A stretch of DNA of 64,000 nt from a virus (Duplodnaviria; Heunggongvirae; Uroviricota; Caudoviricetes): the IMG/VR virus record IMGVR_UViG_3300025887_000009, one strand, 5' to 3'. Below are positions 32,201-61,645 of the stretch, in pieces (positions within the stretch are counted from its first letter, which is position 1; each line of letters starts with the position of its first letter). Below the pieces are notes generated by a model that did no database searches, had not been told where the DNA came from, and was given only the letters and a program-made list of their open reading frames with translations. The position numbers and the translations under genes are program-made.

Positions 32201-32853
32201 GCAATAATATTAAACACGGATGGCATGTGCTTGAGGGAGATAATACCCTCGAGCGTGCTATGAAAAAAGAAAGAATAACAGAAGTTTCTGAATATCAAAA
32301 ACAACAGTTAGACATTTCTTATAAATTTTGTAAACAGTTTCGACATGCAATTGATGTAGGAGCAAATTACGGAATAATGTCGTACAACATGGCTAGGAAG
32401 TTTCAAAAAGTTTCTGCATTTGAAATTGTACCAGAAGTACTAGAATGTTTTAAACTTAATGCTGCTAAGTTTAACCTATCAAATGTTGATATTTACAACT
32501 GCGGGTTAGGCAATAAAGAAGAAACAGTATCCTTGCATTTTAATCCAGGCAAAACTTTTTCCACTCATGTAGACACAAGCAAACCCGGAAACGTAAAAGT
32601 TAATAAATTAGATTATTACAATTTTACAGATGTAGATTTCATCAAAATCGATGCAGAAGGATTTGAATCATTTATAATCGAAGGCGGAATGGAAACAATT
32701 CAGAAATACAAACCGGTTATTTTGTATGAAAGAAAAGGACATTCGCAACGATATAACAAACCTAACAGTATTGTCTTGGACATATTAGCCCCGTTAGGGT
32801 ATAAAGAATTAGCACCGATAGATAGAAAAAATGCGTTAATAGGTGTAGCATGA
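32197..32853 (+). CDS. FkbM-family methyltransferase 1
   Basis: 'IDVGANYGIMS' SAM motif and 'FIKIDAEGFE' match the FkbM domain signature. Confidence 0.7.
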   Translation: MSNNIKHGWHVLEGDNTLERAMKKERITEVSEYQKQQLDISYKFCKQFRHAIDVGANYGIMSYNMARKFQKVSAFEIVPEVLECFKLNAAKFNLSNVDIYNCGLGNKEETVSLHFNPGKTFSTHVDTSKPGNVKVNKLDYYNFTDVDFIKIDAEGFESFIIEGGMETIQKYKPVILYERKGHSQRYNKPNSIVLDILAPLGYKELAPIDRKNALIGVA

Positions 32854-33476
32854 AACAGGTTTACAAATATTGGATGCCCGACAGCGATGACCATTTTGAA
32901 AGATTAATTACCAAGCGAATTAAAAATGGCGGACCTGCAGAATATCAGGATGACGTCAGAGACGAAGCATACAAGTACGTAACTGATTTTAATTTAGCAG
33001 TAGATGTTGGCGCAAATGTCGGATTATGGGCAAGACCGTTAAGTGAAAAATTTGGAAAAGTCTTAGCATATGAACCTATTCAAGAGGTTTATAAATGTTT
33101 GAAATTAAATGTACGAGACTGCAATGTACAACTAAACAACTTTGCTTTAGGCAATGCAAACAGCACAATTGAAATGATTTTTGATCGAGAAAATACCGGT
33201 GCAAGTTACGTTGACGAAAGTTCAATAGGCAAAGGCAGTATTGATATAAAGCGTATGGATGATTTAAATTTACCAAGGTTTGGATTACTTAAAATTGATT
33301 GTGAAAGATTTGAATTAGAAGTACTCAATGGCGGTATTGAAACTATTTTAAAATATAAACCTATTGTAGTAGTTGAGCAACACCCTGATACTGAATATTG
33401 TGCAGGAAAGTTTTTAAAAGAATACGGTGCAAAAGAAATCACCAATGTCAGGAAAGACTATATTTTCGGCTGGTAA
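32850..33476 (+). CDS. FkbM-family methyltransferase 2
   Basis: 'VDVGANVGLWA' and 'LLKIDCERFE'. 4-nt ATGA overlap with the upstream methyltransferase. Confidence 0.7.
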   Translation: MKQVYKYWMPDSDDHFERLITKRIKNGGPAEYQDDVRDEAYKYVTDFNLAVDVGANVGLWARPLSEKFGKVLAYEPIQEVYKCLKLNVRDCNVQLNNFALGNANSTIEMIFDRENTGASYVDESSIGKGSIDIKRMDDLNLPRFGLLKIDCERFELEVLNGGIETILKYKPIVVVEQHPDTEYCAGKFLKEYGAKEITNVRKDYIFGW

Positions 33477-33513
33477 TGGTTAAATAGCAGCATATAATTT
33501 AATAGGAATAACA

Positions 33514-34221
33514 ATGAAAAATAGAGTTTATATAGGCTACGATCCAAGAGAAGATATTGCGTATCAAGTATGCAAATACAGCATAGAATCTCGCAATCCG
33601 GATATCGAAGTTATACCTCTTAAGCAACAAGAATTACGCAATTACGAATTATACTGGAGAGAAATAGATAAGTTAGCAGCAACTGAATTTACTTTTACTA
33701 GATTTCTTATACCTGAATTAAATAAATTCGAAGGCTGGGCGTTATTTTGTGATTGCGACATTTTGTTTTTAACAGACGTACAAGAACTTTTTGATCAAGC
33801 AGATGACCAATATGCTGTGATGTGTGCGCAGCACGATTATAAGCCAACAGACACAATTAAGATGGATGGACAAGTTCAATCAATTTATCCACGTAAGAAT
33901 TGGAGCTCGGTTATGCTTATTAATTGCGGACACGCATCAAATAAGCAACTAACAAAAGAGCTTGTTAATCATCCAGATACTACTGGTGCATTCTTGCATA
34001 GATTTAGTTGGTTAGATGACAGCGAAGTTGGAGAGTTTAGTCACGAATGGAATTGGTTAGTTGATTGGTATGAAGAACCATCTAACGGTAAACCAAAGGC
34101 ATTACATTATACGTCAGGCGGACCTTGGTTTGAGAACTATAGATTTTGCCATTATCATAAAGAATGGAAATACGAACTTAGAAAAATGATGAACGACAAT
34201 CCAGAAGAAGCCAATGACTGA
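33514..34221 (+). CDS. glycosyltransferase family 8-like (retaining, DxD)
   Basis: 'TRFLIPEL...WALFCDCDILFL' (DxD), 'VMLINCG', and the GT8 C-terminal motif 'HYTSGGPWFE' (HxxGxxKPW-like). Confidence 0.6.
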   Translation: MKNRVYIGYDPREDIAYQVCKYSIESRNPDIEVIPLKQQELRNYELYWREIDKLAATEFTFTRFLIPELNKFEGWALFCDCDILFLTDVQELFDQADDQYAVMCAQHDYKPTDTIKMDGQVQSIYPRKNWSSVMLINCGHASNKQLTKELVNHPDTTGAFLHRFSWLDDSEVGEFSHEWNWLVDWYEEPSNGKPKALHYTSGGPWFENYRFCHYHKEWKYELRKMMNDNPEEAND

Positions 34222-35023
34222 AGTAAGAATGCTAGGCACAGATTCTACAGATGTAATCTTAGGAGCATGGATTGAAGGCACCGGTGGCATATCAATTAAT
34301 GCTAAATCTAGAGATGATTATCCTAAGCATATTCCTCTTGCATTCCGGTCGCTAACTAAGCGTAAATTAATTTATGCACTTTGGGACGAGGGCAGAGACT
34401 TCTATTATATAGATACTGGATACATCGGCAATCTAGGAAAAAGAAAAGATTTTCATCGTGTTGTTAAAAATAACGTACAACATTTAACCGGTGTTAAAAA
34501 GATGCCAAGAGACAGATTCGAAACTATATGCAGAATGCAACCTTATATGGAATATAAAGGAAAAAGACAAGACACAGGTGAAGCAATTCTTGTCGTTACT
34601 CCATCAGGTAAACCCTGCCAATTTTATAATGTTAACAGGGACAAATGGTTAGAAGAAACAATAAGTGAGATTAAAAAACATACAAATCGTCCTATTGTTA
34701 TACGTGATAAACCCGATCGTCGTAATCGTGTCGGCGACAACTCATTAGCCGCACAGTTACAAACCGATAACATACATGCGCTAGTGACGTACAATTCAAT
34801 TGCTGCTGTTGAAGCAATACATGCAGGAGTGCCAGCGTTTACCCTTGCTCCAAATGCTGCGCAATCACTAGCATCGCAAGATTTATCTACAATCGAAGAT
34901 CCGTATTATCCAGCAGAAGAAGCAGTAGAAGAATTTCTTTGTTATTTGGCGTATTGTCAGTACACCCCAGAAGAACTAGCCGACGGAACAGCATGGAAAC
35001 TACAACAGGAATATCAGCTATGA
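34214..35023 (+). CDS. GT-B-like paralog A (putative glycosyltransferase)
   Basis: C-terminal region 'IVIRDKPDRRN...LVTYNSIAAVEAIHAGVPAFTL...LAYCQYTPEELADG' is paralogous to the ORFs at 35020 and 36787. Confidence 0.5.
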   Translation: MTEVRMLGTDSTDVILGAWIEGTGGISINAKSRDDYPKHIPLAFRSLTKRKLIYALWDEGRDFYYIDTGYIGNLGKRKDFHRVVKNNVQHLTGVKKMPRDRFETICRMQPYMEYKGKRQDTGEAILVVTPSGKPCQFYNVNRDKWLEETISEIKKHTNRPIVIRDKPDRRNRVGDNSLAAQLQTDNIHALVTYNSIAAVEAIHAGVPAFTLAPNAAQSLASQDLSTIEDPYYPAEEAVEEFLCYLAYCQYTPEELADGTAWKLQQEYQL

Positions 35024-35961
35024 TTTCGGTTGCTGCATATCTATCAGGAATACCACCTAACAACAGAAACCTTGAAAAACCGCTTTTGATTAAGAACTTC
35101 ATAGAGGGCGTAAACAATTCAGGAGATCAAGGTACTGTTGTCGACACAAGAACAGTACTTCCTGCAGACGTAGCATTAATACAAGGCTTTGTGCACGCCA
35201 ACAGCAAAAATACTCCCCATTTGATGTTGCGCAAAAAAGTTTTCGAAACACAGTTAGAAGAGAACAAGCGTTGTATTATAGCAGACAGCAATTTGTTTCT
35301 TTATGCAGATCCGGGTAATTCAAAAAAATATCTACGTTATTCGTACGATGGAGTATTTCCAAATACTGGAGAATATTGTAATGCAAGTCCTGATCCGGAA
35401 CGCTGGGAAAAGATAAAAACAGCCTTAGGGATTGCATTAAAGCCTTGGGATTTTAATGGCAAATATTTTCTAATTTGTTGTCAGCGTGACGGCGGTTGGA
35501 GTATGGGCGGCAATAGCATTGTTCCGTGGTTAATTAATACTATAACCGAAATGCGAAGATATTCAACTACTCCTATTAAAATACGATTCCATCCCGGTGA
35601 CAAAAAGAAAAAAGATCATATAGCAAGAATAAAAAGATTACGTATACCAGATACTGAAATATCGGTTGAACCCGATATCCGCAACGACTTTAAGAAAGCA
35701 AAGGCAGTAATCACGTATAACTCATCTCCCGGGGTTGCAGCAGCAATAGAAGGTAAACCTGTGGTTGTATTAGATCCGCAACGAAGCCAAGCTGCTTCTG
35801 TTTCTCATCACCATCTTAGAGATCTAAAAAACTTAAAAGAATTTGATAGAGAATTTTGGATACAGCAAATTGCACAAATGCATTGGAATTTAGACGAACT
35901 AAAATCAGGCGAAGCGTGGACCCATATGAAGAAATGGGCAAAATTGGAAACAAAAACATGA
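35020..35961 (+). CDS. GT-B-like paralog B (putative glycosyltransferase)
   Basis: ATGA overlap. 'IKIRFHPGD...VITYNSSPGVAAAIEGKPVVVL' shares the paralogous core and carries an HP motif. Confidence 0.5.
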   Translation: MISVAAYLSGIPPNNRNLEKPLLIKNFIEGVNNSGDQGTVVDTRTVLPADVALIQGFVHANSKNTPHLMLRKKVFETQLEENKRCIIADSNLFLYADPGNSKKYLRYSYDGVFPNTGEYCNASPDPERWEKIKTALGIALKPWDFNGKYFLICCQRDGGWSMGGNSIVPWLINTITEMRRYSTTPIKIRFHPGDKKKKDHIARIKRLRIPDTEISVEPDIRNDFKKAKAVITYNSSPGVAAAIEGKPVVVLDPQRSQAASVSHHHLRDLKNLKEFDREFWIQQIAQMHWNLDELKSGEAWTHMKKWAKLETKT

Positions 35962-36797
35962 AGATCGAAGTAGTAACTACATTTCATAAAGAAGGTCTAG
36001 ACACATATGGTCAGAGATTTTTAAACAGCTTTGCACATAATGTGCCTAAAGAAATAAAACTCACAGTGTACGCAGAGAATTGTGTTCCTGTTAATCCTAA
36101 TTCTAAGCAAATTGTAATATTAGATGCAAGCCACTTAACTGACTTACATGAGTTTAAAACAAAATGGAAAGATGTTCCTAAAGCAAATGGCAAATGTCCG
36201 TTTCCAGAAAGACGTCCGAGAGACCATCATAAAGAATTTAAATGGGATGCTGTGAGATTTGCTAATAAAGTGTATGCGGTATTTGATGCAGTAATGAAAA
36301 CCGATGCCGACTGGGTAGTATGGATGGATGCAGACACTTATGTTCACTCACCTATTACTAACGAAGAGTTTGAATCGTTGTTAGATCCTAAACATTGGAT
36401 AACTTACGTTGGACGCGGCAAAGGTTCGCAGTCGTGGCCGGAGTGTGGATTCTACGGAATAAACATGCACGATCCAGCAGCACAATATTTCCTAGGCGAG
36501 TTTCAGCGTATGTACGACGATGCAGAAAATGGAATCTTCAAACTAGAAGAATGGCACGACTCGTTTGTGTTTGGGCATATATTAAATGACATGAAATCTA
36601 AGTATCCTCACTTTTATGATTACACAGATGGGATATATAACAAGACTGCTAAAACTGGCGGTGGCGGACACCCCCTTATTAATAGTGTGCTAGGCACGTG
36701 GTTTGATCACATGAAAGGCGGTCGTAAAGACACAGGACATTCTCATAAAAAAGATCTAATGTCCCAACGCAAGGAAAAATATTGGAATGAAATTTAG
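35958..36797 (+). CDS. GT-A-like DxD glycosyltransferase (putative)
   Basis: ATGA overlap. 'DWVVWMDADTYV' is a DxD motif preceded by a hydrophobic strand. Confidence 0.45.
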   Translation: MKIEVVTTFHKEGLDTYGQRFLNSFAHNVPKEIKLTVYAENCVPVNPNSKQIVILDASHLTDLHEFKTKWKDVPKANGKCPFPERRPRDHHKEFKWDAVRFANKVYAVFDAVMKTDADWVVWMDADTYVHSPITNEEFESLLDPKHWITYVGRGKGSQSWPECGFYGINMHDPAAQYFLGEFQRMYDDAENGIFKLEEWHDSFVFGHILNDMKSKYPHFYDYTDGIYNKTAKTGGGGHPLINSVLGTWFDHMKGGRKDTGHSHKKDLMSQRKEKYWNEI

Positions 36798-37617
36798 TCT
36801 ATGGACCAAATACGGAGCGCAAAACTCAAAACCTGTATTTGATGCTTTTGCACAATCATTAAAAAATGAAGGGCACACTGTTGTTTACAATGAGCCTGGA
36901 GCAGACAAAGACGTAATATGGAGCGTACTTTGGAAAGGAAAGATGGCATCAAATAAAGCCATCTTTAACAGCAGCACTATTGTTTTAGAAGTAGGCGGTA
37001 TTAAACGAGGCACAACGTGGAAGGTAGCAATAGGTGGCATAGATCGCCATGCAATGTTTCCGAGACCAGATCCAGGGGACGAACGAGCTAAGAAGCTAGG
37101 ATTAAAAGCAGACCTATGGTGCCCAAATACAAAAGGACCGGTTGTAATTTGTTGTCAAAATTATAATTCATTTCAGTGGAACGGAAAACCAAGTATCGAA
37201 CAATGGTTAGAAAATACTATAATTGAACTTCGGCAACACACCAAACGAGACATTCTAATTAGAGCCCATCCAAGATCTACAATTTCCGACATATCTAAAA
37301 AATTCAAAAACGTGCAATATTCAGTACCAACAAAAATCCCCCGCAGCTACGATGATTACGACTTCAATCCAAAAACCGCTTGGGCAGTAGTTAACGCATC
37401 TTCTGGCCCTGGTGTACAAGCAGCTATAAAAGGGATCCCTGTTTTTGTAGAAAATGCAAGCCTGGCATGGGACGTAGGAAATCATAACCTTTCTACAATA
37501 GAACATCCAGAAATGCCAGATCGCACAGAATGGATAAATCATTTAGCTTACACAGAATGGACTGTGTCTGAGATTGCCAGCGGCGAACCGTTAAAGAGGT
37601 TGACAGATCACTTGTAG
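36787..37617 (+). CDS. GT-B-like paralog C (putative glycosyltransferase)
   Basis: 'ILIRAHPRS...AVVNASSGPGVQAAIKGIPVFV...LAYTEWTVSEIASG' gives a paralogous core with an HP motif. 11-nt overlap upstream. Confidence 0.5.
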   Translation: MKFSLWTKYGAQNSKPVFDAFAQSLKNEGHTVVYNEPGADKDVIWSVLWKGKMASNKAIFNSSTIVLEVGGIKRGTTWKVAIGGIDRHAMFPRPDPGDERAKKLGLKADLWCPNTKGPVVICCQNYNSFQWNGKPSIEQWLENTIIELRQHTKRDILIRAHPRSTISDISKKFKNVQYSVPTKIPRSYDDYDFNPKTAWAVVNASSGPGVQAAIKGIPVFVENASLAWDVGNHNLSTIEHPEMPDRTEWINHLAYTEWTVSEIASGEPLKRLTDHL

Positions 37618-41474: not shown

Positions 41475-42153
41475 TAAACCTTTTAAGTGTGGTTATTGCA
41501 ACACTGGGTTTACTAGAGAAAAAACATTATTCTCACATACGTGTGAACAAAAGCGCAGGCATTTGCAAAAAGACGACAAGCATGTTCGTCTTGCGTTTTA
41601 TGCTTTCTTGAGGTTTTATAAACTAAACGTAGGATCAACTACAAAAGAAAAGAGCTACGACGATTTTTGTAGATCGCAATATTATAAAGCATTTGTTAAA
41701 TTTGGATCGTATGTGTCAAACGTTAAGCCATTGTATCCTGAAAAATATATTGACTATGTTGTAACAAGTGGCGCAAAATTGGATCATTGGTGCAGAGATG
41801 AATTGTATGAAAAGTATGCACTAGCATACATTCTCAAAGAAGATGCAACAGTAGCACTAACTCGATCGATAGAAACAATGGATGCATGGGCAAAAGAAAA
41901 TAACTCTTCGTACAATCATTATTTCTTATATGCATCACCGAACAGAATTGTACGAGATGTCAGAGATGGTAAAGTATCCCCGTGGTTAATGCTAAATTGT
42001 AAGAGCGGTAAAGAAGCGCTGAATAAATTTAATGACGAGCAACTAAGCAACGTGTTTGATGTAATTAATCCAAAGAACTGGACTATACGTTTTAGCAGAG
42101 AAAAAGATGATGTTGCACTTATAAAAGACATAGCTAAGAAGGCAAACCTATAA
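41449..42153 (+). CDS. hypothetical protein with C2H2-like zinc finger
   Basis: Internal Met start with a 26-nt overlap (ORF track start 41380). 'FKCGYCNTGFTREKTLFSHTCEQ'. Confidence 0.4.
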   Translation: MKNETSRSNKPFKCGYCNTGFTREKTLFSHTCEQKRRHLQKDDKHVRLAFYAFLRFYKLNVGSTTKEKSYDDFCRSQYYKAFVKFGSYVSNVKPLYPEKYIDYVVTSGAKLDHWCRDELYEKYALAYILKEDATVALTRSIETMDAWAKENNSSYNHYFLYASPNRIVRDVRDGKVSPWLMLNCKSGKEALNKFNDEQLSNVFDVINPKNWTIRFSREKDDVALIKDIAKKANL

Positions 42154-42653
42154 TGGAATTAGTACACTACCCAGCAGAAATATTAAACAAACAATTAAAA
42201 CTAATTGATATTGAAAACATCGATTTTGACCCAAATGAATTACTTAAAGAAATGTCAGACACAATGCTTGCATCGGACGGCGTTGGCTTAGCAGCTTGTC
42301 AAGTTGGAATAGATCGTGCATTGTTTATTATGGGCGACAAAGTTGCTGGTGTAAAAATGTTTATCAATCCTCAAGTCCTACAGCACACATCTGACACTGG
42401 ATTAGACTACGAAGGATGTTTGTCGTTTCCTGGAATGTTTGTAAAAGTAAAACGTCCAAAAGAAATCTTAGTTCAATATTTCGACGAGGATCTTGTGCAG
42501 CAAACAGTTAAAATCGATGACTACTCTGCCCGGGTGTTTTTGCACGAATGGGACCACTTGCAAGGTATCACATTTAAAGACCGAGTAAGTAAACTCAAAT
42601 GGGATAGAGCAAGACAAAAGAAAAACAAAGTAGCAAAGCTGTATTCAATCTAA
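42153..42653 (+). CDS. def: peptide deformylase
   Basis: Deformylase motifs 'GVGLAACQVG', 'EGCLSFPG' and 'HEWDHLQG' are all present. Confidence 0.85.
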   Translation: MELVHYPAEILNKQLKLIDIENIDFDPNELLKEMSDTMLASDGVGLAACQVGIDRALFIMGDKVAGVKMFINPQVLQHTSDTGLDYEGCLSFPGMFVKVKRPKEILVQYFDEDLVQQTVKIDDYSARVFLHEWDHLQGITFKDRVSKLKWDRARQKKNKVAKLYSI

Positions 42654-43216
42654 TGGACGTCGACATTGATTTTTCAAACAGAGATGATCTTCTAAACCTT
42701 TTCAAGCATCATCCTGCTATACTTGAAAACGGAAAGAAGCATAACACCGGGGTATATTTTACAGATATACCCCACGATCCTATCACAGGCTATGCTACAA
42801 TAGATTACAAGAAAGCTGAAGAGCGTGGTTATTTTAAACTCGACTGTCTTAATGTAAGTATCTATCAAAATGTCAGAGACGAAGAACATCTCAACGAGTT
42901 AATGCGTGAACCTATGTGGGAACTGTTGCAGCATGAAGAATTTGTAGATAAAGTTTTTCACTTGTCTGGGCATCATAATATTTTACAAAAACTCAAACCC
43001 GACACAGTTGAAAAGTTAGCAGCTTGTCTTGCTGTTATTCGTCCTGCAAAACGATACTTGTTAAATAGAGATTGGTATGATATATTTCAAGAAGTGTGGA
43101 TTGCTCCGAGTACTGATCAATACTTCTTTAAGAAAAGCCACGCCCATTCTTATGCAATGGCTGTAGTTGTTCATATGAATTTACTTTGTGAAGAACTTAA
43201 TCCTTTGGACGTCTAA
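42653..43216 (+). CDS. hypothetical protein (187 aa)
   Basis: ORF whose start overlaps the deformylase stop. Confidence 0.45.
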   Translation: MDVDIDFSNRDDLLNLFKHHPAILENGKKHNTGVYFTDIPHDPITGYATIDYKKAEERGYFKLDCLNVSIYQNVRDEEHLNELMREPMWELLQHEEFVDKVFHLSGHHNILQKLKPDTVEKLAACLAVIRPAKRYLLNRDWYDIFQEVWIAPSTDQYFFKKSHAHSYAMAVVVHMNLLCEELNPLDV

Positions 43217-44414: not shown

Positions 44415-44762
44415 ATGCGTAATGGATTAATCGTAGACGAAGATGGACCCAAGACTTGGTATCAAAACAATCTACTACATCGCGAAGATGGACCAGCAGT
44501 TGAATGGACAGATGGCACCAAAGCGTGGTATCAAAACAATCAGCTACATCGAACAGATGGACCAGCTGTTGAATATGCAGATGGCAAAAAGGTGTGGTAT
44601 CAAAACGGCCGACTACATCGAATTGACGGACCAGCAGTCGAACATCCAGATGGCACCAAGGTGTGGTATTTCAACGGGGAACAACTTTCATTAAACCTAT
44701 GGTTTGAACAGGTCGACGCCACCGAAGCACGAAAAACATTGATGAGGTTACAGTATGCGTAA
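44415..44762 (+). CDS. MORN-variant (YwqK-like) repeat protein, 3 repeats
   Basis: 23-aa repeats 'WYQNNxLHRxDGPAVEYADGTKx', conserved C-terminal '...TLMRLQYA', and an ATGCGTAA overlap with the next gene. Preceded by a sigma70 promoter. Confidence 0.65.
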   Translation: MRNGLIVDEDGPKTWYQNNLLHREDGPAVEWTDGTKAWYQNNQLHRTDGPAVEYADGKKVWYQNGRLHRIDGPAVEHPDGTKVWYFNGEQLSLNLWFEQVDATEARKTLMRLQYA

Positions 44763-45036
44763 TGGATTAATCGTAGACGAAGATGGAACCAAGACTTGGT
44801 ATCAAAACAATCTACTACATCGCGAAGATGGACCAGCAGTCGAACATCCAGATGGCACCAAGGTGTGGTATCAAAACAATCAGCTACATCGAACAGATGG
44901 CCCAGCTGTTGAATATGCAGATGGCGTCAACCTTTGGTTCCTCAAAGACGTCGAGCACGACTTCAACGAGTGGCTTGAGCGTGTTGACACATGTACAGAA
45001 GTAGAAAAAACAATGATACGATTGCAATATACGTAA
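44755..45036 (+). CDS. MORN-variant repeat protein, 2 repeats
   Basis: First ~85 nt nearly identical to the ORF at 44415. Ends '...TMIRLQYT'. Confidence 0.65.
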   Translation: MRNGLIVDEDGTKTWYQNNLLHREDGPAVEHPDGTKVWYQNNQLHRTDGPAVEYADGVNLWFLKDVEHDFNEWLERVDTCTEVEKTMIRLQYT

Positions 45037-45045: not shown

Positions 45046-45074
45046 TTGACAGTACACTGAAATAATGTTATAAT
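45046..45074 (+). promoter_or_regulatory. sigma70-type early promoter, perfect consensus
   Basis: TTGACA 45046-45051, 17 nt, TATAAT 45069-45074. Upstream of the primase gene. Confidence 0.6.
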
Positions 45075-45080: not shown

Positions 45081-46064
45081 ATGAGTATTGTGTATGATAC
45101 ATTAATGACCTATCTGCCTGGCAAGAGGAAGACAACGCCGAGCGGATGGACGTCGTTTAACGCTACCTGTTGTATTCACAATGGCGAGTCTGCAGATACA
45201 CGAATGCGCGGCGGCGTTATTGGTAGTGATGAAGAAGTTAGTTATCATTGCTTTAACTGTGGCTATAAAGCAAGTCATGTTAAAGGGCGCACACTATCTC
45301 ATAATATGAGAAAACTGTTTGTTTGGTTAGGAATACCTGACGACACTATTAATAAAATTGCTTTACAACTTCTAAGAGAAAAAGAAGGCGTAGAGTCTAC
45401 AGAAAGAATAGTTCATCTACCAAGTTTTGATGAAAAGGAACTGCCTCCTGATTCTAAGCCTATTTTAGATTGGGATATCGAAAACAATCAATATATTGTT
45501 AAAGTTGCAACCTACATGAACGAACGAGGATTGTATCTTGACGACTACAACTTTCACTGGTCGCCTGATAGAATATACCGTAACAGACTTATGATACCAT
45601 TTTACTATGAGGGTAAAATTGTCGGCTGGACTGCAAGAGACGTGACAGGAAATGCAGCATCAAAATACATGTCGCACCAGCCTGTAGGATATGTGTTTAA
45701 TTTAGACGAGCAACAAAATAATCGTGTATTCTGCTTGGTGTTCGAAGGACCAATTGATGCAATATACTTTGACGGAGTTGCGATACTAGGATCAGAAATC
45801 AAAGACGAGCAAGCATTGCTAATTAATAGACTGGCTAAAATAAATGTATTAGTGCCTGACAGAGACAGCAAAGGCAAACAGATGGTTCAACAAGCAATCG
45901 ATCTAGGCTGGCTTGTTTCGTTTCCTGAGTGGGAAGAAGGCATAGATGATGCTGGCTCGGCTGTTGAAAAATACGGAAGGCTATATACGTTGCACTCGAT
46001 TATCGGCGCAATCGAGACAAGCCCACTTAAGATAAAACTAAGGATGAAGAAATGGTTTGGTTAA
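45081..46064 (+). CDS. 61: DNA primase (gp61-like; zinc ribbon + TOPRIM)
   Basis: 'CCIHNGE...CFNCGY' zinc ribbon. TOPRIM-like 'VFCLVFEGPIDAIYFDG' and 'VPDRDSKG'. A perfect sigma70 promoter lies upstream. Confidence 0.7.
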   Translation: MSIVYDTLMTYLPGKRKTTPSGWTSFNATCCIHNGESADTRMRGGVIGSDEEVSYHCFNCGYKASHVKGRTLSHNMRKLFVWLGIPDDTINKIALQLLREKEGVESTERIVHLPSFDEKELPPDSKPILDWDIENNQYIVKVATYMNERGLYLDDYNFHWSPDRIYRNRLMIPFYYEGKIVGWTARDVTGNAASKYMSHQPVGYVFNLDEQQNNRVFCLVFEGPIDAIYFDGVAILGSEIKDEQALLINRLAKINVLVPDRDSKGKQMVQQAIDLGWLVSFPEWEEGIDDAGSAVEKYGRLYTLHSIIGAIETSPLKIKLRMKKWFG

Positions 46065-46182
46065 AGAAGCTTTGGGGAATTATTAAATTTCCATACACAT
46101 GGTATAAAGAAGAGAAGGCGTTTAAAAAGCGTCTTAAGAAAATGAGAGAACAAGATCCGTTTATATACCGATAAGGAACACA

Positions 46183-47154
46183 ATGACAACAAAAATTATC
46201 TGGGGAATGACTGGTAACAGCCATGACGCAAGCATTGCCGGTTTTACACACGACGGTAAAACATTAACACCAAAATGGGCAAAGTTAGCCAATAACTCTG
46301 ACATCACCGAAGAGCTTATTCAAGGAGCAATAGAAAATGTCGGTTACCCGGATCAAGTAGTCTGGTATGAAAAACCTTTGTTAAAAACTCTACGACAATG
46401 GCGTGCAGGGCAAGGATGGTTGCTAAAAGAAAACAACATCAAGCAATATCTTGCAGAACGTAATTTATGCGACATTCCTATCGTCTATACCAAACACCAC
46501 CTCAGTCATGCAGCATATGCTTACTATACGCAACCGTATGCCGACTGTGCAATAATCTGTCTTGACTCAATTGGAGAGTTTGAAACATTAACGATGTGGA
46601 AAGGCGACAAAGACTGGCGGCTTACTAAAGTCTATTCACAAAACTATCCGCATAGTCTTGGTTTGTTTTATTCAGCTATGGTTCAGCGCGCCGGCGGCAC
46701 GCCGCAACAAGATGAACATTTGTTAGCAGCACTCGGCGATCCAGTAAAAGGTATTGATTCTCTTGTTCCTGCTATCTACGAAGATATTTTGGAAATACAA
46801 GACACTGCTCCGTTTATTAAGATGAAGCAAAACTTGCACAAAGGATACAAAGACTGGCGTCCAGATCTTAAAAAATTTAAGGATCGAAAACGCATTGCAG
46901 CGGCAACACAATCAGTATTTGAAGATTGCATCAGTCATTTGTCGTCTAAAGCAGTGTATCTAACTGGATCACCAAATCTTGCACTTGCAGGTGGCGGAGC
47001 AATGAATAAAAGAGCGGTTGACAAAATTCGAAATCAATGGCATAATGTACATGTACCGGTAAATCCAGGCGACCCAGGGTCTGCGATAGGTGCAGTTCTA
47101 GCGCGGTATAATCAGCGTGTGAACATAGACGGAATTTGGGAGACAAAGGAGTAA
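46183..47154 (+). CDS. carbamoyltransferase N-terminal (Kae1/NodU-like ASKHA) domain protein
   Basis: 'ILGMTGNSHDASIA', 'HHLSHAAYAY', 'CLDSIGE', 'SLGLFYSAMVQ', 'LAGGGAMNKRAV' and 'NPGDPGSAIGAVL' match the NodU/CmcH/TobZ N-domain. No YrdC-like C-domain. Confidence 0.6.
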   Translation: MTTKIIWGMTGNSHDASIAGFTHDGKTLTPKWAKLANNSDITEELIQGAIENVGYPDQVVWYEKPLLKTLRQWRAGQGWLLKENNIKQYLAERNLCDIPIVYTKHHLSHAAYAYYTQPYADCAIICLDSIGEFETLTMWKGDKDWRLTKVYSQNYPHSLGLFYSAMVQRAGGTPQQDEHLLAALGDPVKGIDSLVPAIYEDILEIQDTAPFIKMKQNLHKGYKDWRPDLKKFKDRKRIAAATQSVFEDCISHLSSKAVYLTGSPNLALAGGGAMNKRAVDKIRNQWHNVHVPVNPGDPGSAIGAVLARYNQRVNIDGIWETKE

Positions 47155-47155: not shown

Positions 47156-48586
47156 ATGGCAGTAAGACAAAACACAGACTACGGGGTAGACATACAAAAG
47201 GTTTATCTCGAAATAATGCTATCAGATGCAGAAACATTTGTACGATGCCAGAATATTTTTGACGATACGTTGTTTGACAGATCATTGCAACCGTCTGCAA
47301 AGTTCATAAATGATTATGTAACAGAATACAATGCTATGCCGACCATTGATATTGTATCATCTGCTACCGGAACAAAATTTAAGGAAATAACAGACCTTGC
47401 TGAAAATCATTATGACTGGTTACTTGACGAATTTGAAACATTTACAAAACACAAAGCACTAGAACGGGCAATATTCGAAAGTGCAGACTTATTAGAAAAA
47501 GGCGACTACGGACCAGTAGAAGAGCGCATTAAAGCAGCCGTACAAATCGGTTTGCAGAAAGACATGGGCACAGATTACTTTGGTAATCCTCTTGAACGAT
47601 TGATGGCAATTAAAGACAAGAACGGACAGATATCTACAGGCTGGCCTGGGTTGGATAGAAAGCTGTTTGGTGGATTTAACAGAGGCGAACTAAACATCTT
47701 CGCAGGTGCATCAGGCGCAGGTAAGAGTTTGTTCCTTGCTAACCTCGGAGTGAACTGGGCCGAGGCAGGCTACAACGTATTGTATCTAACATTAGAGCTT
47801 AGTGAAAACCTAGTTGGTATGCGACTCGACTCTATGACAACAGGCATACCATCGCGGGACATCTTTAAGAATATCGAAGACGTTAACTTAAAGGTCAGAA
47901 TGATTGGTAAGAAGAGTGGATCATTCCAAATCAAATATATGCCCAGCGGCAAGACAGCAAACGATGTTCGTGCATACTTAAAAGAACTTGAAATCAAAAC
48001 AGGACGCAAAGTAGATATTGTGTTGCTTGACTATCTTGATCTGTTGATGCCTATCTCTATTAAAATTAGTCCAGAGAACTTGTTCATCAAAGACAAATAC
48101 GTATCAGAAGAACTACGCAATCTAGCAATGGAATTGAACACTATCTTTGTAACAGCATCGCAGTTAAACAGAGGTGCAACAGAGGAAGTTGAATTTGACC
48201 ATTCACACATCTCAGGAGGCTTGTCAAAGATTCAAACAGCAGACAACGTGCTCGGTATCTTTACATCTAGGGCAATGCGAGAACGAGGACGATATCAGCT
48301 TCAGTTAATGAAGACACGTTCGTCATCCGGTGTTGGCTCAAAAATTGATCTAGGATTTAATGTAGATACATTGCGCATTGAAGATTTAGGCGAAGACGAA
48401 GACGGAGATTCTCCAACTGCATCTGCAAGTTCAAAAGTCGGCGCTGCTATCATTGACAAAGTAAAACGCAATAGTTCTAGCAGAGACGAAGATGCAGACG
48501 AACCGGCACCTAAGATCCGCGCAGAAGCAGACTCGACTAAATTGCGAGCATTTTTAAATAATCTTGGAAACGACGACGAAGATTAA
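47156..48586 (+). CDS. 41: replicative DNA helicase (DnaB/gp41 family)
   Basis: Walker A 'GASGAGKS' in a RecA-like C-domain. Acidic C-tail. Confidence 0.85.
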   Translation: MAVRQNTDYGVDIQKVYLEIMLSDAETFVRCQNIFDDTLFDRSLQPSAKFINDYVTEYNAMPTIDIVSSATGTKFKEITDLAENHYDWLLDEFETFTKHKALERAIFESADLLEKGDYGPVEERIKAAVQIGLQKDMGTDYFGNPLERLMAIKDKNGQISTGWPGLDRKLFGGFNRGELNIFAGASGAGKSLFLANLGVNWAEAGYNVLYLTLELSENLVGMRLDSMTTGIPSRDIFKNIEDVNLKVRMIGKKSGSFQIKYMPSGKTANDVRAYLKELEIKTGRKVDIVLLDYLDLLMPISIKISPENLFIKDKYVSEELRNLAMELNTIFVTASQLNRGATEEVEFDHSHISGGLSKIQTADNVLGIFTSRAMRERGRYQLQLMKTRSSSGVGSKIDLGFNVDTLRIEDLGEDEDGDSPTASASSKVGAAIIDKVKRNSSSRDEDADEPAPKIRAEADSTKLRAFLNNLGNDDED

Positions 48587-52808: not shown

Positions 52809-53035
52809 GTTTTGTTAATGCTTTCTTGTTCGAGCAGATCTAGCAGCCAGCCACCGCCTTCATAAACACTGTCGTGCCAAACAAATCCAGCATCTTCCAG
52901 CTTGTTGAGTTCTTCTTGTGAAAGTTGATCTCGCGGTGCAAGATCGCCAGGAATACCAAATGAGCCGTTGCCTTTTTCTTCAATGCGCGTCAACATCATT
53001 TCTAGTACTTCGATAAGATTTTTATCAAGTTTCAT
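52805..53035 (-). CDS. hypothetical early protein
   Basis: Packed ORF with a 4-nt overlap. Confidence 0.4.
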   Translation of the reverse strand: MKLDKNLIEVLEMMLTRIEEKGNGSFGIPGDLAPRDQLSQEELNKLEDAGFVWHDSVYEGGGWLLDLLEQESINKT

Positions 53036-53406
53036 TTCTGTTTCCGTCTCTCTTCTTTTAAGTGTTTCATAAAATTATTCATATAGCTGATAATCTTTTC
53101 TTTACCAACTGGGTTCATACTATGTACAGTATAGTGGAAATCCTTAGGAAAGTCAAGATCATTATCAAGAATATGATCACACAGCCAGCGAGCAAAGTCG
53201 TAGCCTGTCTTGTCGCCATGGCCTTGTACGTAATGCTCTTCAGCAAGATCGTGGTCGAAATGTACAACCTGCGGAATGCCGTAACGAGTAACATAGAAAA
53301 TAGCATCATCCATATTGCGAGCAATGATCAGTAGTTCGTCCTTTTCATACGAAACCTTTGCTTGGTCTAGTGTTCTAATGTCATCGAGGAAAAGATACCA
53401 TTTCAT
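53032..53406 (-). CDS. hypothetical early protein (124 aa)
   Basis: Packed ORF with His-rich motifs 'HFDHD' and 'HYTVHS'. Confidence 0.4.
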   Translation of the reverse strand: MKWYLFLDDIRTLDQAKVSYEKDELLIIARNMDDAIFYVTRYGIPQVVHFDHDLAEEHYVQGHGDKTGYDFARWLCDHILDNDLDFPKDFHYTVHSMNPVGKEKIISYMNNFMKHLKEERRKQK

Positions 53407-57095: not shown

Positions 57096-58469
57096 TTATT
57101 TAAATCGCGGTGCTTCTTTTGCTGCGCGGTCTTCCAGGTTCTTCAGTGCGCCGAGCGTAGTAAACACATCAAGTGATGTTGGTGCTTCTGCGCCGCTACC
57201 GCCGCTGTAGAAGTCTGGCATGTCAATAGTAACATCTTTCAGCGCAGGGTACATAACCCGAGCAATGTCACGTTCGATTTCTGCCATATAGATATCCTTA
57301 GCTGATTGCTTTGCACTCAATTTAGCAAGTTCAACATCTGCTTCGGCTAGACCCTTTTCGCGGATTGCCATACCTTCAAACTTTGCAGCTTGTGCAGCAG
57401 CTTCTTGGATACCGCGGTTAGCTTCGGCAATAGCAAGTTCCTTTTCCTTTTGGATCACAGCAACATCTTTCTCTTTTTGTTGCTTTACAAGTTCTTGCAA
57501 GGCTTGCTGGCGCTCTACTTCAACACGTTGCTGACCTTGGATAGTTGCAAGTTCTTTTTCCTTCTGAGCATCTTGAATAGCTTTTTGCTTATCAATTTCG
57601 CGCTCTTGCTTTGCTGCTTCTGCCTTTACACGGTTTGTGTCGATTTCCTGTTGAGCAGTAATCTTTTCACCAACCGATTGACGCTTTCGGTCAAGCAATG
57701 TTTCAAGTTGAGAATCTGCTGTAGGTTTACCAATTGTTACCTGCGTAACTTGGATACCGTATTCTGCCATAGGATTCTCAAGTCGCCGAGGTTGTCCCGA
57801 AGTCTCGTCAATGACGATCACATTTTTCATCACAAGTCGAATTTCGTTTTCAACAAGATTAGCGTTTGAGTTTGTGCTTGATACATCAGCATATCCGCTT
57901 TCTGTAACTTCAACTTGCTGTCGCTTTGTTACATATAGACCATTTGAAAGTTGATCTTCCATTTGTGCTTTGTAAGCGTTAACTCCACCTTGGATGAATT
58001 CTTCACCTGTGTACTGAGTTGCTGTAACAACTGCAACGTTGCGAGAGTTGTTAACAAGCAAAGTATCTACCAAGTTGTCAAAGCTTCGGAAATCTTGGTG
58101 CAGCTTTCGGAAGTTCTCTTCATCTACAGGCAAACGATAACGGAACGTTGCAGGAACTGTGCCTGTGTAAGTATCCGCAAAGCCGACATTAATTGCACCA
58201 AGGTTTCGAGTAAAGTTACCGTCTTCCATGGTCATATCAATTGTTGCAACACGTTTGTATTCATAGATATTAGTAAACAATGGCATCTTCAAGTGCACAC
58301 CCGGTTCCGAGTAAACAGTAGTAGAGCCCGTGAGTTTGTTTTGCACATAGTACAAATACCCTTCACTGGTAGTAAACCAAGTCGAAAGTGCCACGAATAG
58401 AACTACTACAGATGCTACTGCGTATTTTGCAAATCGTTTTACCATATTCGTAAATTCTTTATCATTCAT
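57096..58469 (-). CDS. SPFH/band-7 (flotillin-like) membrane protein
   Basis: N-terminal TM 'YAVASVVVLFVALSTWF', an SPFH-type domain, then a long Q/E/K/A-rich coiled coil with EA-rich stretches. Terminator downstream. Confidence 0.75.
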   Translation of the reverse strand: MNDKEFTNMVKRFAKYAVASVVVLFVALSTWFTTSEGYLYYVQNKLTGSTTVYSEPGVHLKMPLFTNIYEYKRVATIDMTMEDGNFTRNLGAINVGFADTYTGTVPATFRYRLPVDEENFRKLHQDFRSFDNLVDTLLVNNSRNVAVVTATQYTGEEFIQGGVNAYKAQMEDQLSNGLYVTKRQQVEVTESGYADVSSTNSNANLVENEIRLVMKNVIVIDETSGQPRRLENPMAEYGIQVTQVTIGKPTADSQLETLLDRKRQSVGEKITAQQEIDTNRVKAEAAKQEREIDKQKAIQDAQKEKELATIQGQQRVEVERQQALQELVKQQKEKDVAVIQKEKELAIAEANRGIQEAAAQAAKFEGMAIREKGLAEADVELAKLSAKQSAKDIYMAEIERDIARVMYPALKDVTIDMPDFYSGGSGAEAPTSLDVFTTLGALKNLEDRAAKEAPRFK

Positions 58470-59313: not shown

Positions 59314-59595
59314 TTACGCATATTGTAACCTCATTAATGTTTTTTCTACTTCGGTGTATGTGTCGACTAGTTCAAGCCACTCGTCAAATAAAAGTGGTTT
59401 GCCTTTATAAAACCAATGTCGGTCGCCATTTGTATATTCAGCTGCTGGGCCGTCAACACGATGCAGTCGGCCTTCGAACCACCAACTGTATTCGCCATTT
59501 GCATATTCAACTGCCGGTCCATCAGTTCTGTGCAGCAATCCGTCTTGATACCAATACCGGTCGCCGCTTGCAAGTGTAGCTACTCCATTACGCAT
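59314..59595 (-). CDS. MORN-variant repeat protein (2 repeats)
   Basis: Last gene of the array. 'MRNGVATLASGDRYWYQDGLLHRTDGPAVEYANG...TLMRLQYA'. Confidence 0.65.
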   Translation of the reverse strand: MRNGVATLASGDRYWYQDGLLHRTDGPAVEYANGEYSWWFEGRLHRVDGPAAEYTNGDRHWFYKGKPLLFDEWLELVDTYTEVEKTLMRLQYA

Positions 59596-60142
59596 ATTGT
59601 AACCTCATTAATGTTTTTTCTACTTCTGTGTAATTGGCGTGTTCGAGCCAATCAATGAAGTTGTACTCGACGCCTCTGAAGTACCAAAGCTTAGAACCAC
59701 TTACGCGGTCAACTGCCGGACCGTCGGTTCGGTGTAATTCTCCGTTTTGATACCAAGCCCGATCGCCATTTGCGTATTCAGTTGCTGGTCCAGCTGTTCT
59801 GTGTCGTTGATTGTTTTGATGCCACTCCTTGGTGCCACTTGCGTATTCAACTGCTGGTCCGTCAATTCGATGTAGTTCTCCGTTTTGATACCACATCTTA
59901 GTGCCATTTGCACGTTCAGCAGCTGGGCCATCAGTTCTGTGTCGTTGCCCGTTTTGATACCACTCCTTATCACCATCTGCAAATTCGATTGCTGGTCCGT
60001 CAATTCTATGTAGTAAGCCGTGTTGATACCACTCCTTGTTGCCATCTGGGTATTCAACTGCTGGCCCATCGTCGCGATGTAGTAGACCGTTTTGATACCA
60101 AAACCGGTCGCCGGATTTGTTTGTGATCATTCTATTACGCAT
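59588..60142 (-). CDS. MORN-variant repeat protein (6 repeats)
   Basis: 23-aa repeats. 8-nt ATGCGTAA overlaps on both sides. Confidence 0.65.
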   Translation of the reverse strand: MRNRMITNKSGDRFWYQNGLLHRDDGPAVEYPDGNKEWYQHGLLHRIDGPAIEFADGDKEWYQNGQRHRTDGPAAERANGTKMWYQNGELHRIDGPAVEYASGTKEWHQNNQRHRTAGPATEYANGDRAWYQNGELHRTDGPAVDRVSGSKLWYFRGVEYNFIDWLEHANYTEVEKTLMRLQYA

Positions 60143-60551
60143 ACTGCAACCTCAACATTGTTTTTTGTACTTCGTTGAAAGCGACCTCTTCAAGCCAGTC
60201 ATTAAAAAAAAGTGGTTCATTTTTAAGGAACCAACGCCGGTTGCCATTTGCGTATTCAATAGCTGGTCCGGTGGTTCTGTGTAGTAGATCATTTTGATAC
60301 CAATACCGGTCGCCCGCAGCGAATTCAACTGCTGGTCCATCTGTTCTGTGTCGCTGGCCGTGTTGATGCCACTCTTTGCCGCCACTTGCATATTCAGCTG
60401 CTGGACCATTAGTGCGGTGTAGTCGGCCTTTAAAATACCAATGCTTGTCGCCGTTGTGCCATTCAACTGCTGGTCCATCTGTTCTGTGTCGTCGGTCGTT
60501 TTGGTACCAAATCTTGGTGCCATTTTTGTCTACGATCAATCCATTACGCAT
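60135..60551 (-). CDS. MORN-variant repeat protein (4 repeats)
   Basis: Same repeat family and C-terminal 'TMLRLQYA'. Confidence 0.65.
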   Translation of the reverse strand: MRNGLIVDKNGTKIWYQNDRRHRTDGPAVEWHNGDKHWYFKGRLHRTNGPAAEYASGGKEWHQHGQRHRTDGPAVEFAAGDRYWYQNDLLHRTTGPAIEYANGNRRWFLKNEPLFFNDWLEEVAFNEVQKTMLRLQYA

Positions 60552-61098
60552 ACTGCAACCTCAACATTGTTTTTTGTACTTCTGTGTAATTGACGTGTTC
60601 AAGCCAGTCATTTAAAAAAAACGGTTCACTTTTAAGGAACCAACGCTGATTGCCATTTGCGTATTCAATAGCTGGTCCATCTGTTCGGTGTAGTTGATTG
60701 TTTTGATACCAATACCGGTCGCCGCTTGCGCGTTCAATCGCTGGGCCATCTGTTCTGTGTCGTCCGTTGTGTTGATACCAATACCGGCCGCCGCTTGCGC
60801 GTTCAATCGCTGGGCCATCTGTTCGATGTAGTCGGCCTTCGAAATACCACTCCTTGTCGCTGTTGTACCATTCAATCGCTGGGCCATCTGTTCGATGTAG
60901 TCGGCCTTCGAAATACCACTGCTTGGTGCCATCGTTCCGTTCAATCGCTGGTCCATTTGTTCTGTGTCGTTGCCCGTGTTGATACCACTCCTTGCGGCCA
61001 TTTGCATATTCGACTGCTGGTCCTTGGTCTCGATGTAGTAGATCATCTTGATACCACACCTTAGCACCTTGAATGTCTACGATCAATCCATTACGCAT
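60544..61098 (-). CDS. MORN-variant repeat protein (6 repeats)
   Basis: Same repeat family. Confidence 0.65.
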   Translation of the reverse strand: MRNGLIVDIQGAKVWYQDDLLHRDQGPAVEYANGRKEWYQHGQRHRTNGPAIERNDGTKQWYFEGRLHRTDGPAIEWYNSDKEWYFEGRLHRTDGPAIERASGGRYWYQHNGRHRTDGPAIERASGDRYWYQNNQLHRTDGPAIEYANGNQRWFLKSEPFFLNDWLEHVNYTEVQKTMLRLQYA

Positions 61099-61645
61099 AC
61101 TGCAACCTCATCATTGTTTTTTCTACTTCGGTGATGTTAACAAGTTCAATCCAGTCGCCAAAGGAACACCTAACGCCTTCGAAGTACCACTTTTTGGTCC
61201 CACTTGAGCGCTCAATAGCTGGGCCATCTGTTCGGTGTAGTTCTCCGTCTTGATACCACACCTTTTTGCCAGTTGCATATTCAATCGCTGGGCCATCAAT
61301 TCGATGTAGTCGGTTGTGTTGATACCACTCCTTGGTGCCACTTGAGCGCTCGATTGCCGGGCCATCTGTTCGATGTAGTTCTCCGTCTTGATACCACACC
61401 TTTTTGCCAGTTGCATATTCAACTGCTGGTCCGTCAATTCGATGTAGTTCTCCGTGTTGATACCACTCCTTGGTGCCATCTGCGAATTCAACTGCTGGTC
61501 CGTCAATTCGATGTAGTTCTCCGTTTTGATACCACTCCTTGTGGACATCTGCATATTCAACAGCTGGACCATCCGTTCGATGTAGTTGGCCGTTTTGATA
61601 CCAAGTCTTGGTTCCATCTCCTTCTATGATCAATCCATTACGCAT
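61091..61645 (-). CDS. MORN-variant repeat protein (6 repeats)
   Basis: Same repeat family. Confidence 0.65.
   Translation of the reverse strand: MRNGLIIEGDGTKTWYQNGQLHRTDGPAVEYADVHKEWYQNGELHRIDGPAVEFADGTKEWYQHGELHRIDGPAVEYATGKKVWYQDGELHRTDGPAIERSSGTKEWYQHNRLHRIDGPAIEYATGKKVWYQDGELHRTDGPAIERSSGTKKWYFEGVRCSFGDWIELVNITEVEKTMMRLQYA

Follow-up and report, generated by a model that had tools for sequence, protein, structure and literature searches.

A stand-alone Kae1-like carbamoyltransferase domain without its YrdC-like half, carried in an exchangeable cassette between the primase and DnaB genes of aquatic jumbo phages

The O-carbamoyltransferases of the NodU/CmcH/TobZ type (class III) include TobZ, NodU/NolO, CmcH, NovN, GdmN, and VtdB. 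They have a Kae1-like N-terminal domain and, in the characterised members (about 490–700 amino acids, aa), a YrdC-like domain. All characterised class III enzymes couple carbamoyl-AMP formation and carbamoyl transfer in one protein that has this YrdC-like domain (PMC9633730). A phage-encoded member of the same superfamily, the 5-hydroxymethylcytosine (5hmC) carbamoyltransferase, is a two-domain protein of 63 kDa that needs carbamoyl phosphate and ATP, makes 5-carbamoyloxymethylcytosine, and prefers single-stranded DNA and 5-hydroxymethyldeoxycytidine triphosphate (5hmdCTP). This enzyme is accompanied by a thymidylate-synthase-like hydroxymethylase, a PRA-PH/MazG-type enzyme, and deaminases, and provides a precedent for action on DNA and nucleotides (Yang et al., 2021, eLife, PMC8670742). 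A precedent of another kind is the division of labour in the synthesis of N6-threonylcarbamoyladenosine (t6A), in which a stand-alone Kae1-type transferase (TsaD/Kae1/Qri7) uses a diffusible acyl-adenylate from a separate YrdC-type protein (TsaC/Sua5) (PMC9654439). The stretch of 64,000 nucleotides (nt) analysed here at its full length (the window; IMG/VR record IMGVR_UViG_3300025887_000009) belongs to an uncultured aquatic jumbo-phage lineage, and it contains, between the genes for a primase and the replicative helicase, a gene for a class III carbamoyltransferase that consists of the Kae1-like domain only (hereafter N-only). In the literature, no paper was found on stand-alone Kae1-like carbamoyltransferase domains or on jumbo-phage carbamoyltransferases. 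The gene and its neighbours are:

46183..47154, + strand: stand-alone Kae1-like carbamoyltransferase N-domain gene, transfer half only, ATG start, product of 323 aa (open reading frame (ORF), PF02543, fold match, and ratio of nonsynonymous to synonymous substitution rates (dN/dS))
45081..46064, + strand: DnaG/Toprim-type DNA primase, forming the conserved 5' flank of the cassette (PHROG 47, E=2e-33)
46052..46174, + strand: 40-aa ORF between the primase and carbamoyltransferase genes, with no assigned function, predicted as a gene in three further contigs of this phage
47156..48586, + strand: DnaB-like replicative helicase, the conserved downstream flank (PF03796, E=7e-20; PHROG 19, E=6e-71)

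Five hallmark blocks of the NodU/CmcH/TobZ Kae1-like domain are present in the translated product, namely HHLSHAAYAY (aa 105–114), CLDSIGE (126–132), SLGLFYSAM (158–166), LAGGGAMNKRA (268–278), and NPGDPGSAIG (294–303). The Pfam family Carbam_trans_N (PF02543) matches residues 94–305 (E=6.2e-24; 85.5 bits versus a cutoff of 24), and PHROG 1601 ('Nol-like carbamoyltransferase') matches residues 21–311 (E=5.7e-26) with profile positions 35–322 of 528. Because the coverage of this profile stops at position 322, the C-terminal half of the family is missing from the protein. The Pfam search found no Carbam_trans_C domain in it, and the polypeptide stops straight after the Kae1-like domain. Profile matches to NovN, TobZ, and GdmN have E values of 4e-18 to 7e-15. 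A TsaD/Kae1 identity was ruled out by model scores and fold ranking. In a check set beforehand, the NCBIfam hidden Markov models (HMMs) for TsaD/Kae1 gave 12–14 bits against cutoffs of 208–296 (TIGR03723, 13.7 versus 296; TIGR00329, 11.8 versus 208). The AlphaFold2 model, built on 52 homologs (predicted local distance difference test 87; predicted template modeling (TM) score 0.86), has as its best Foldseek matches in the PDB the Kae1-like domains of the O-carbamoyltransferases GdmN, NovN, TobZ, and VtdB (TM score 0.75–0.80), and TsaD, Kae1, and Qri7 rank below all carbamoyltransferases (0.5–0.64). The protein is thus confirmed as a class III Kae1-like domain, not TsaD, without a YrdC-like domain. 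The earlier note on this DNA, made from the sequence alone, had described the hallmark blocks, the lack of the C-terminal domain, the carbamoyltransferase rather than TsaD/Kae1 identity, and the position of the gene wedged between primase and replicative helicase; all four descriptions are borne out, the last by the PHROG and Pfam assignments of the flanking genes. The N-only protein therefore shares with TobZ, NodU/NolO, CmcH, NovN, GdmN, and VtdB the PF02543 domain, the fold, the iron ligands, the catalytic histidine, and the nucleotide loop, and differs from them in its length, the lack of a YrdC-like domain, and its apparent restriction to phages. It differs from the t6A system in not being a family member, and no TsaB/TsaE-type partners or tRNA genes are present in the window.

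The codons of the predicted transfer site are:

46222..46227, + strand: His14-Asp15 (GNSHDAS motif); His14 is the predicted general base (invariant; equivalent by motif to TobZ H14 and GdmN H27)
46495..46509, + strand: HHLSH (aa 105–109); His105 and His109 are predicted to be two of the four iron ligands (aligned to TobZ H114/H118 and GdmN H133/H137; invariant)
46564..46566, + strand: Asp128 (CLDSIGE), predicted third iron ligand (aligned to TobZ D137 and GdmN D156; invariant)
46990..47007, + strand: GGGAMN (aa 270–275), nucleotide-binding glycine loop of the acetate and sugar kinase/Hsc70/actin (ASKHA) fold (G270, G271, and N275 invariant)
47068..47082, + strand: GDPGS (aa 296–300); Asp297 is the predicted fourth iron ligand (aligned to TobZ D338 and GdmN D333; invariant)
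46693..46746, + strand: aa 171–188, the segment matching GLKPNE-EYILMGMAAYG (group-wise conservation comparison)

These equivalences come from sequence and profile alignments to TobZ and GdmN; in the latter, H133, H137, D156, and D333 bind iron and H27 is the general base (PMC9633730). For TobZ, PDB entry 3vex is the H14N variant, and His14 of the phage protein matches this histidine by motif. His14, the four ligands H105/H109/D128/D297, the glycine loop residues G270-G271-x-x-x-N275, and GDPGS (296–300) are invariant in 52 N-only proteins and in the two-domain phage relatives. As judged from these alignments, the transfer site of the N-only protein is intact, with the four iron ligands and the catalytic histidine retained. 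In a group-wise comparison with two-domain enzymes of the same genomic slot (see below), 59 positions have the same conserved residue in both groups, including aa 56–77, a stretch overlapping the part of the alignment that contains the acceptor-binding helix of GdmN, and no position is conserved in the N-only clade alone. Every two-domain relative has the segment GLKPNE-EYILMGMAAYG unchanged, whereas its conservation is relaxed in the N-only proteins, a pattern consistent with a lost contact to the missing YrdC-like domain. The glycine loop also differs, being GGCALNC in the two-domain relatives and GGGALNK in the N-only clade, and there are fixed differences between the two groups at positions 17, 246, and 298.

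Loci fetched with the carbamoyltransferase have the primase gene upstream in 89 of 92 cases and dnaB downstream in 74 of 77, and the gaps at this junction vary because further small genes are inserted there. An unbiased sample of the junction was obtained by fetching loci with DnaB (helicases 60–81% identical; 74 loci with enough upstream sequence). The primase gene is upstream of dnaB in all 74 of these close uncultured relatives, and a carbamoyltransferase gene is found in 45. Three states of the junction are present: 29 loci are empty, with the primase gene adjoining dnaB directly or nearly, 23 have a two-domain carbamoyltransferase, and 22 have an N-only gene. In the Pseudomonas jumbo phage PA5oct, in which upstream synteny is as in the window, the primase and dnaB genes also adjoin (2-nt gap). 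The carbamoyltransferase is thus absent from the junction in 29 of the 74 relatives and in PA5oct, and is not a lineage-wide component of the replisome block. The two-domain genes at the junction encode 486–521 aa, with a fused Carbam_trans_C domain detected by the C-domain HMM (E values of 1e-52 to 1e-70) in the 23 DnaB-fetched loci and in four loci fetched with UvsW. These enzymes of sister jumbo phages (e.g., loci L226, L177, and L273) occupy the same slot between the same flanks and form the nearest tree branch; they keep the C-domain that the N-only clade has lost, together with the segment that is relaxed there. Other cargo found in this junction among the relatives includes genes for coproporphyrinogen oxidase and a 2-oxoglutarate (2OG)-Fe oxygenase.

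When the junction states are mapped on a DnaB tree of 124 distinct phages, with PA5oct as the root, all three are intermingled, and about 24 parsimony changes are required. This scatter indicates that the cassette is an exchangeable accessory; the gene is an accessory cassette expressed with early replication genes and not a part of the replisome. Together with the single origin of the N-only form described below, it also indicates that N-only and two-domain cassettes behave as alleles of one another that are exchanged among related genomes, presumably through recombination within the conserved flanking primase and DnaB genes, and that are lost repeatedly. The series of empty, complete, and half loci in otherwise near-identical phages provides a ready natural experimental design. 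Because the junction is often empty and can hold unrelated cargo, the position of the gene carries little functional information. The earlier note had taken the placement inside the replisome block as a hint of a DNA-linked substrate. The comparison lends this hint no support, given the adjoining genes in PA5oct, the empty junctions, the unrelated cargo, and the failure to find the companion genes of the 5hmC pathway (see below). The case is a caution against inferring function from position, as a gene between primase and helicase need not target DNA.

The origin of the N-only form was examined in a tree of the N-domains from 181 distinct proteins, with the characterised 5hmC enzyme as the root. 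The 100 N-only proteins make up a single clade that includes no two-domain member (96–99 of 100 bootstraps). In 66 of 96 replicates, only two-domain enzymes of the junction make up the sister group of this clade, and the exact-membership bootstrap for the clade of N-only plus junction two-domain proteins is 9 of 100. The junction two-domain enzymes in turn nest among two-domain phage enzymes that are encoded at other places. Sequence identities of the window protein decrease in the same order, with a median of 56% to other N-only proteins, 40–48% to junction two-domain enzymes, a median of 38% to other two-domain phage enzymes, and 22% to the N-domain of the 5hmC enzyme. The monophyly of the N-only proteins beside the junction two-domain enzymes points to one loss of the YrdC-like domain in situ, and the simplest history would be a single deletion of this domain in a carbamoyltransferase already located at the primase/DnaB junction. 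The gene is a derived truncation of the complete enzyme found in the same slot of sister phages. Among N-only genes, the median pairwise dN/dS is 0.09 and the maximum 0.15 (82 pairs), matching the N-domain part of intact relatives (0.08–0.11), and identity within the clade goes down to 35% with all catalytic residues kept. The low dN/dS indicates that the remnant is functional.

With the YrdC-like half deleted and the remnant under selection, the activated donor must come from elsewhere, and the earlier note had proposed to look for a YrdC/Sua5-like partner in the rest of the genome. No such partner turned up in the window: three C-domains used as queries for HMM and phmmer searches matched nothing there, and a Pfam survey of the 108 candidate ORFs found no YrdC/Sua5/TsaC, Carbam_trans_C, HypF, or carbamate kinase. 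A C-domain partner was also not found in 1.46 Mb of flanks of N-only relatives (about 10 kb per flank). Within 2.8 kb of the block, no neighbour gene tracks the N-only state, and the best candidate is present in 38% of the N-only loci. In the best 80 IMG/VR loci with junction-type C-domains, every complete C-domain is fused to an N-domain. None of these 80 loci lies on an N-only contig, although this comparison of contig names is a weak test of a relocated partner, as only the best-matching loci were compared. The best 120 C-domain matches in a set of 5.8 billion proteins are mostly fragments from contigs of 1–2 kb. Candidates for free-standing C-domain proteins (recurrent matches of 203 aa and 177 aa) were rejected, as the two that were viewed in context are artefacts of a 100-N scaffold gap (L421) and a frameshifted long-read contig (L420).

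A genuine split pair exists in a remoter phage-like lineage (L419, 7001–8487), where an N-domain protein of 336 aa (P0140) is followed 30 nt downstream by a 148-aa Carbam_trans_C gene. This pair indicates that the two halves can function without being fused. Its N-domain is a polypeptide of its own, as in the N-only clade, and the N-only clade differs in having no C gene at the locus or in any of the flanks examined. The L419 contig also has genes for an Acb1-like protein, a nucleoside deoxyribosyltransferase, a radical SAM protein, and a DUF6071 protein. Since the searches revealed no partner encoded by the phage, the most likely source of the donor is a YrdC-type enzyme of the host or a phage gene that lies beyond the sequence available. 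Moreover, because N-only and two-domain forms alternate among very similar phages, a dedicated partner gene elsewhere in the phage genome is unlikely, which favours a donor supplied by the host.

For the acceptor, the gene neighbourhoods of two-domain relatives provide some indications. Clustered with the gene for the nearest two-domain relative (P0128; 43% identical) are those for a UDP-glucose/GDP-mannose dehydrogenase, a radical SAM/SPASM enzyme, and a methyltransferase. The flanks of 80 two-domain relatives are enriched in DUF6071, radical SAM/SPASM, UDPG_MGDP_dh, APS kinase, glycosyltransferase family 2 (GT2), formyltransferase, and aminotransferase genes. DUF6071 and radical SAM genes are the commonest neighbours of the two-domain phage carbamoyltransferases (13 and 8 of 138 flanking genes, respectively), and no thymidylate synthase was found in the flanks of the 80 relatives. 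The phage itself has sugar genes in the following region:

32197–37617, + strand: sugar-tailoring island with two FkbM methyltransferases, a GT8 and a DUF6716-like glycosyltransferase (32.2–35.0 kb), and two unassigned paralogs (35856–36797 and 36787–37617)

A gene for a UDP-glucose/GDP-mannose dehydrogenase is located about 0.7–1.8 kb beyond the right end of the window (L425). In relatives, the regions corresponding to this island instead encode KdsA/KdsB (CMP-Kdo), cupin, URO-D, 2OG-Fe oxygenases, coproporphyrinogen oxidase, and CN-hydrolases; the region is a highly variable cargo zone. Taken as a whole, the neighbourhoods lean toward a sugar or a sugar-bearing molecule as a likelier acceptor than DNA. 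The proposal in the earlier note that the protein O-carbamoylates the glycan made by the 32–37 kb operon accordingly has indirect support, and more of it than the proposal of a DNA-linked substrate: sugar-tailoring genes do accompany the two-domain relatives, and FkbM, GT8, and dehydrogenase genes are present in the phage. Genes of a 5hmC-type pathway (ThyX, MazG-type, dCMP deaminase, TET, and thymidylate-synthase-like hydroxymethylase) were found neither in the window, nor in the flanks of about 10 kb in N-only relatives, nor beside the 80 two-domain relatives. The similarity of the window protein to the 5hmC carbamoyltransferase is limited to 25% identity over 131 aa (E=1e-4).

We hold with moderate confidence that the gene encodes a transfer-only O-carbamoyltransferase, which would carry out an iron-dependent carbamoyl transfer to a sugar-type hydroxyl, with the adenylate supplied in trans, probably by a host YrdC-type enzyme. 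In the complete enzyme, the YrdC-like half would make carbamoyl-AMP from carbamoyl phosphate and ATP, and the iron-binding ASKHA/Kae1-like domain would take the carbamoyl group from this enzyme-bound acyl-adenylate and place it on the acceptor hydroxyl. After the loss of the first half, the remnant would have been kept as a working protein that receives its activated donor from another protein, in the way TsaD/Kae1 receives threonylcarbamoyl-AMP from the separate TsaC/Sua5. Both the supply in trans and the acceptor class are inferred, and several points weigh against the proposal. A free carbamoyl-AMP pool is not known from bacteria. The searches covered 64 kb of a genome of more than 200 kb, about 10 kb per flank in relatives, and the best 80–120 matches in the collections, which leaves room elsewhere in the genome for a YrdC-like partner or a hydroxymethylase pathway. 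The trees are neighbour-joining trees on p-distances and not likelihood trees. The sugar genes are 9–14 kb away from the cassette, and the cassette-less loci centred on UvsW number three, a sample too small to relate the presence of the cassette to that of the upstream sugar genes. Finally, the median net charge of the N-domain is +3.5 in the N-only clade and -2 in the two-domain sisters, and a more positive domain would equally fit a nucleic-acid or nucleotide ligand.

Other explanations differ in what they make of the missing half. A decaying remnant without function is scarcely credible: the gene is a truncation, and many relatives have an empty junction, as might be expected under decay, but the selection analysis is taken to refute this explanation, the catalytic residues have survived a divergence down to 35% identity, the ORF is clean and has its own ribosome-binding site, and thousands of intact variants exist. 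An ordinary split enzyme, in which a separate YrdC-like/Carbam_trans_C gene elsewhere in the genome makes carbamoyl-AMP and the two proteins assemble, is unlikely in our view. A real two-gene version in another phage lineage (336 aa and 148 aa, 30 nt apart) makes it conceivable, and only about a quarter of the genome is visible. Yet no C-domain was found in the window or in the 1.46 Mb of flanks, the best 80 IMG/VR C-domains are all fused with none on an N-only contig, and the best 120 matches of the 5.8 billion proteins are for the most part fragments, with artefacts in both cases viewed in context; the alternation of cassette forms among very close phages is also hard to square with a dedicated partner gene. 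Alternatively, the Kae1-like domain may have been re-purposed, either to use another adenylate (e.g., host threonylcarbamoyl-AMP) or to bind, hydrolyse, or sequester nucleotides for host takeover, and would then be no carbamoyltransferase. The absence of the donor-making domain under continued strong selection would fit such a change, as would the altered glycine loop and the three fixed differences; threonylcarbamoyl-AMP is also the one diffusible adenylate of its type that is known from all bacteria. Re-purposing nevertheless appears very unlikely, as the catalytic and metal residues of the transferase are unchanged, the 59 positions (including aa 56–77) are shared with the two-domain form, and both sequence and fold are far from TsaD. 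The lack of any residue conserved in the N-only clade alone means that there is no sign of a new site.

The explanation that departs from a sugar acceptor is a DNA or nucleotide carbamoyltransferase, acting on a hydroxymethyl-pyrimidine in replicating single-stranded DNA or in a deoxynucleoside triphosphate. It would account for expression with primase and helicase, with which the gene is co-transcribed in the predicted operon (see below), and the known phage enzyme does act on single-stranded DNA and 5hmdCTP (PMC8670742). The more positive net charge of the N-only domains and the presence of a NUDIX gene and a weak deoxynucleoside monophosphate kinase-like ORF in the window also point in this direction. 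We nevertheless find it doubtful, because the protein is only 22–25% identical to the 5hmC enzyme and falls outside its tree neighbourhood, the companion genes of that two-domain enzyme are absent from the window, from the flanks of about 10 kb, and from beside the 80 two-domain relatives, and the position of the gene in a junction that is empty in 29 of 74 relatives or holds unrelated cargo is hardly informative. More speculative, and improbable as it stands, is the idea that the phage-only clade dispensed with the adenylate-forming domain by tapping a donor made by the host, whether threonylcarbamoyl-AMP from TsaC or carbamoyl-AMP from a YrdC-type enzyme. Such a protein would have no known precedent among carbamoyltransferase-type enzymes in its use of a scavenged adenylate, and it could mark a target of the phage or the host, possibly including replicating DNA or nucleotides, with a carbamoyl or threonylcarbamoyl group early in infection. 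The loss of the half that the characterised class III enzymes keep in the same protein, with the other half still under strong selection, means either that a labile adenylate can be handed from one protein to another, or from the host to a phage enzyme, with much greater ease than has been assumed, or that an undescribed activity resides in the Kae1-like domain itself.

The expression signals of the cassette are:

45046..45074, + strand: sigma-70-type promoter match (TTGACA-17-TATAAT with TG, 12 of 12 consensus positions) just 5' of the primase gene; predicted, probable operon promoter
46173..46177, + strand: AAGGA Shine-Dalgarno-like sequence, 5 nt 5' of the carbamoyltransferase ATG (read from the sequence)

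The stop codon of the carbamoyltransferase gene is located one base before the ATG of dnaB, and GGAG lies within its last codons. The primase, carbamoyltransferase, and dnaB genes are probably read as one early operon, an arrangement that would set the time of expression and does not indicate the target. The 3' end of the carbamoyltransferase gene contains a second strong promoter-like match (11 of 12 with TG; 47018–47046, + strand), some 110 nt ahead of the start of dnaB, and the insertion may have brought or kept a promoter for the helicase.

The source phage is distant from cultured phages. Megablast found no nucleotide-level relatives among GenBank phages, and tblastn against the same set found only four distant records. 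The nearest cultured relative is PA5oct (Arenbergviridae), with 54–56% identity in the large terminase and DnaB; the jumbo myoviruses Atu_ph07, Phosso, and Vibrio 2.275.O are remoter. Structural genes in the window form a T4-type module (gp23-type capsid protein, prohead protease, sheath, gp15-like protein, and TerL), and gp32-like, UvsX/RecA-like, and UvsW-like genes are also present. The exact 323-aa protein is present on 13 contigs from several samples, one of them of 0.2–1 Mb, and IMG/VR contigs carrying homologs reach 357–383 kb. There are more than 2,297 homologs, the best 120 of which are all 316–346 aa long, and 488 IMG/VR loci with homologs; the N-only family comprises thousands of variants from aquatic metagenomes. 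In a scan of cellular genomes (one genome per species; 185,579 bacteria and archaea), the family was confined to two very large contigs that have this phage block and belong to a metagenome-assembled genome (MAG) from the Red Sea, and one distant match is an ordinary two-domain bacterial enzyme of 580 aa. As far as these cellular and IMG/VR data go, the N-only family is restricted to phages. The two contigs, PBPT01000016.1 (335 kb; L255) and PBPT01000082.1 (153 kb; L256), belong to the MAG 'Candidatus Neomarinimicrobiota bacterium RS350' and have an N-only gene with 54–55% identity. They are either mis-binned jumbo-phage contigs or a hint at the host.

Several other features were observed in the window and its relatives. 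A family of repeat proteins with 'WYQNGxLHRxDGPA' units (MORN-like; Pfam DUF6745) is encoded at 44415–45036 (+ strand) and 59588–62325 (- strand). Two of these genes are located just 5' of the primase promoter and six are arranged in tandem on the minus strand, all with an identical terminal '...EVEKTLMRLQYA'; seven members match PF20530. A conserved 187-aa ORF (42653–43216, + strand) has a weak match to the DNA polymerase III alpha 'finger', and relatives have a 542-aa DNA_pol3_alpha gene straight after dnaB (L001, 12590–14218) that is absent at this place in the window. These two may represent a split or fragmented DnaE-type polymerase.

A weak MptE-like/Maf-like match (E=0.009, below cutoff) is found just after the end of the portal gene (615–1379, + strand), and, if real, it could relate to virion-protein glycosylation. 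A TnsA-like endonuclease N-terminal domain (E=3e-22) is encoded between the tail genes and the terminase region, in an ORF that is probably 22401–22838 (+ strand) by reading of the sequence, and is probably a homing-type endonuclease. In a relative (L011/L012, 1–2318), the UvsW-like helicase gene is split by an intein (Hint/Intein_splicing) and a NUMOD3/TnsA-like homing endonuclease. Among about 30 small minus-strand ORFs with no assigned function, one (53032–53406, - strand) matches cREC_REC, a cyclic-phosphate processing receiver domain (E=3e-20). Finally, the window encodes an SPFH/Band-7 protein (57096–58469, - strand), a NUDIX hydrolase among the tail genes (11947–12387, - strand), and a peptide deformylase (42153–42653, + strand), which are typical auxiliary genes of marine phages.

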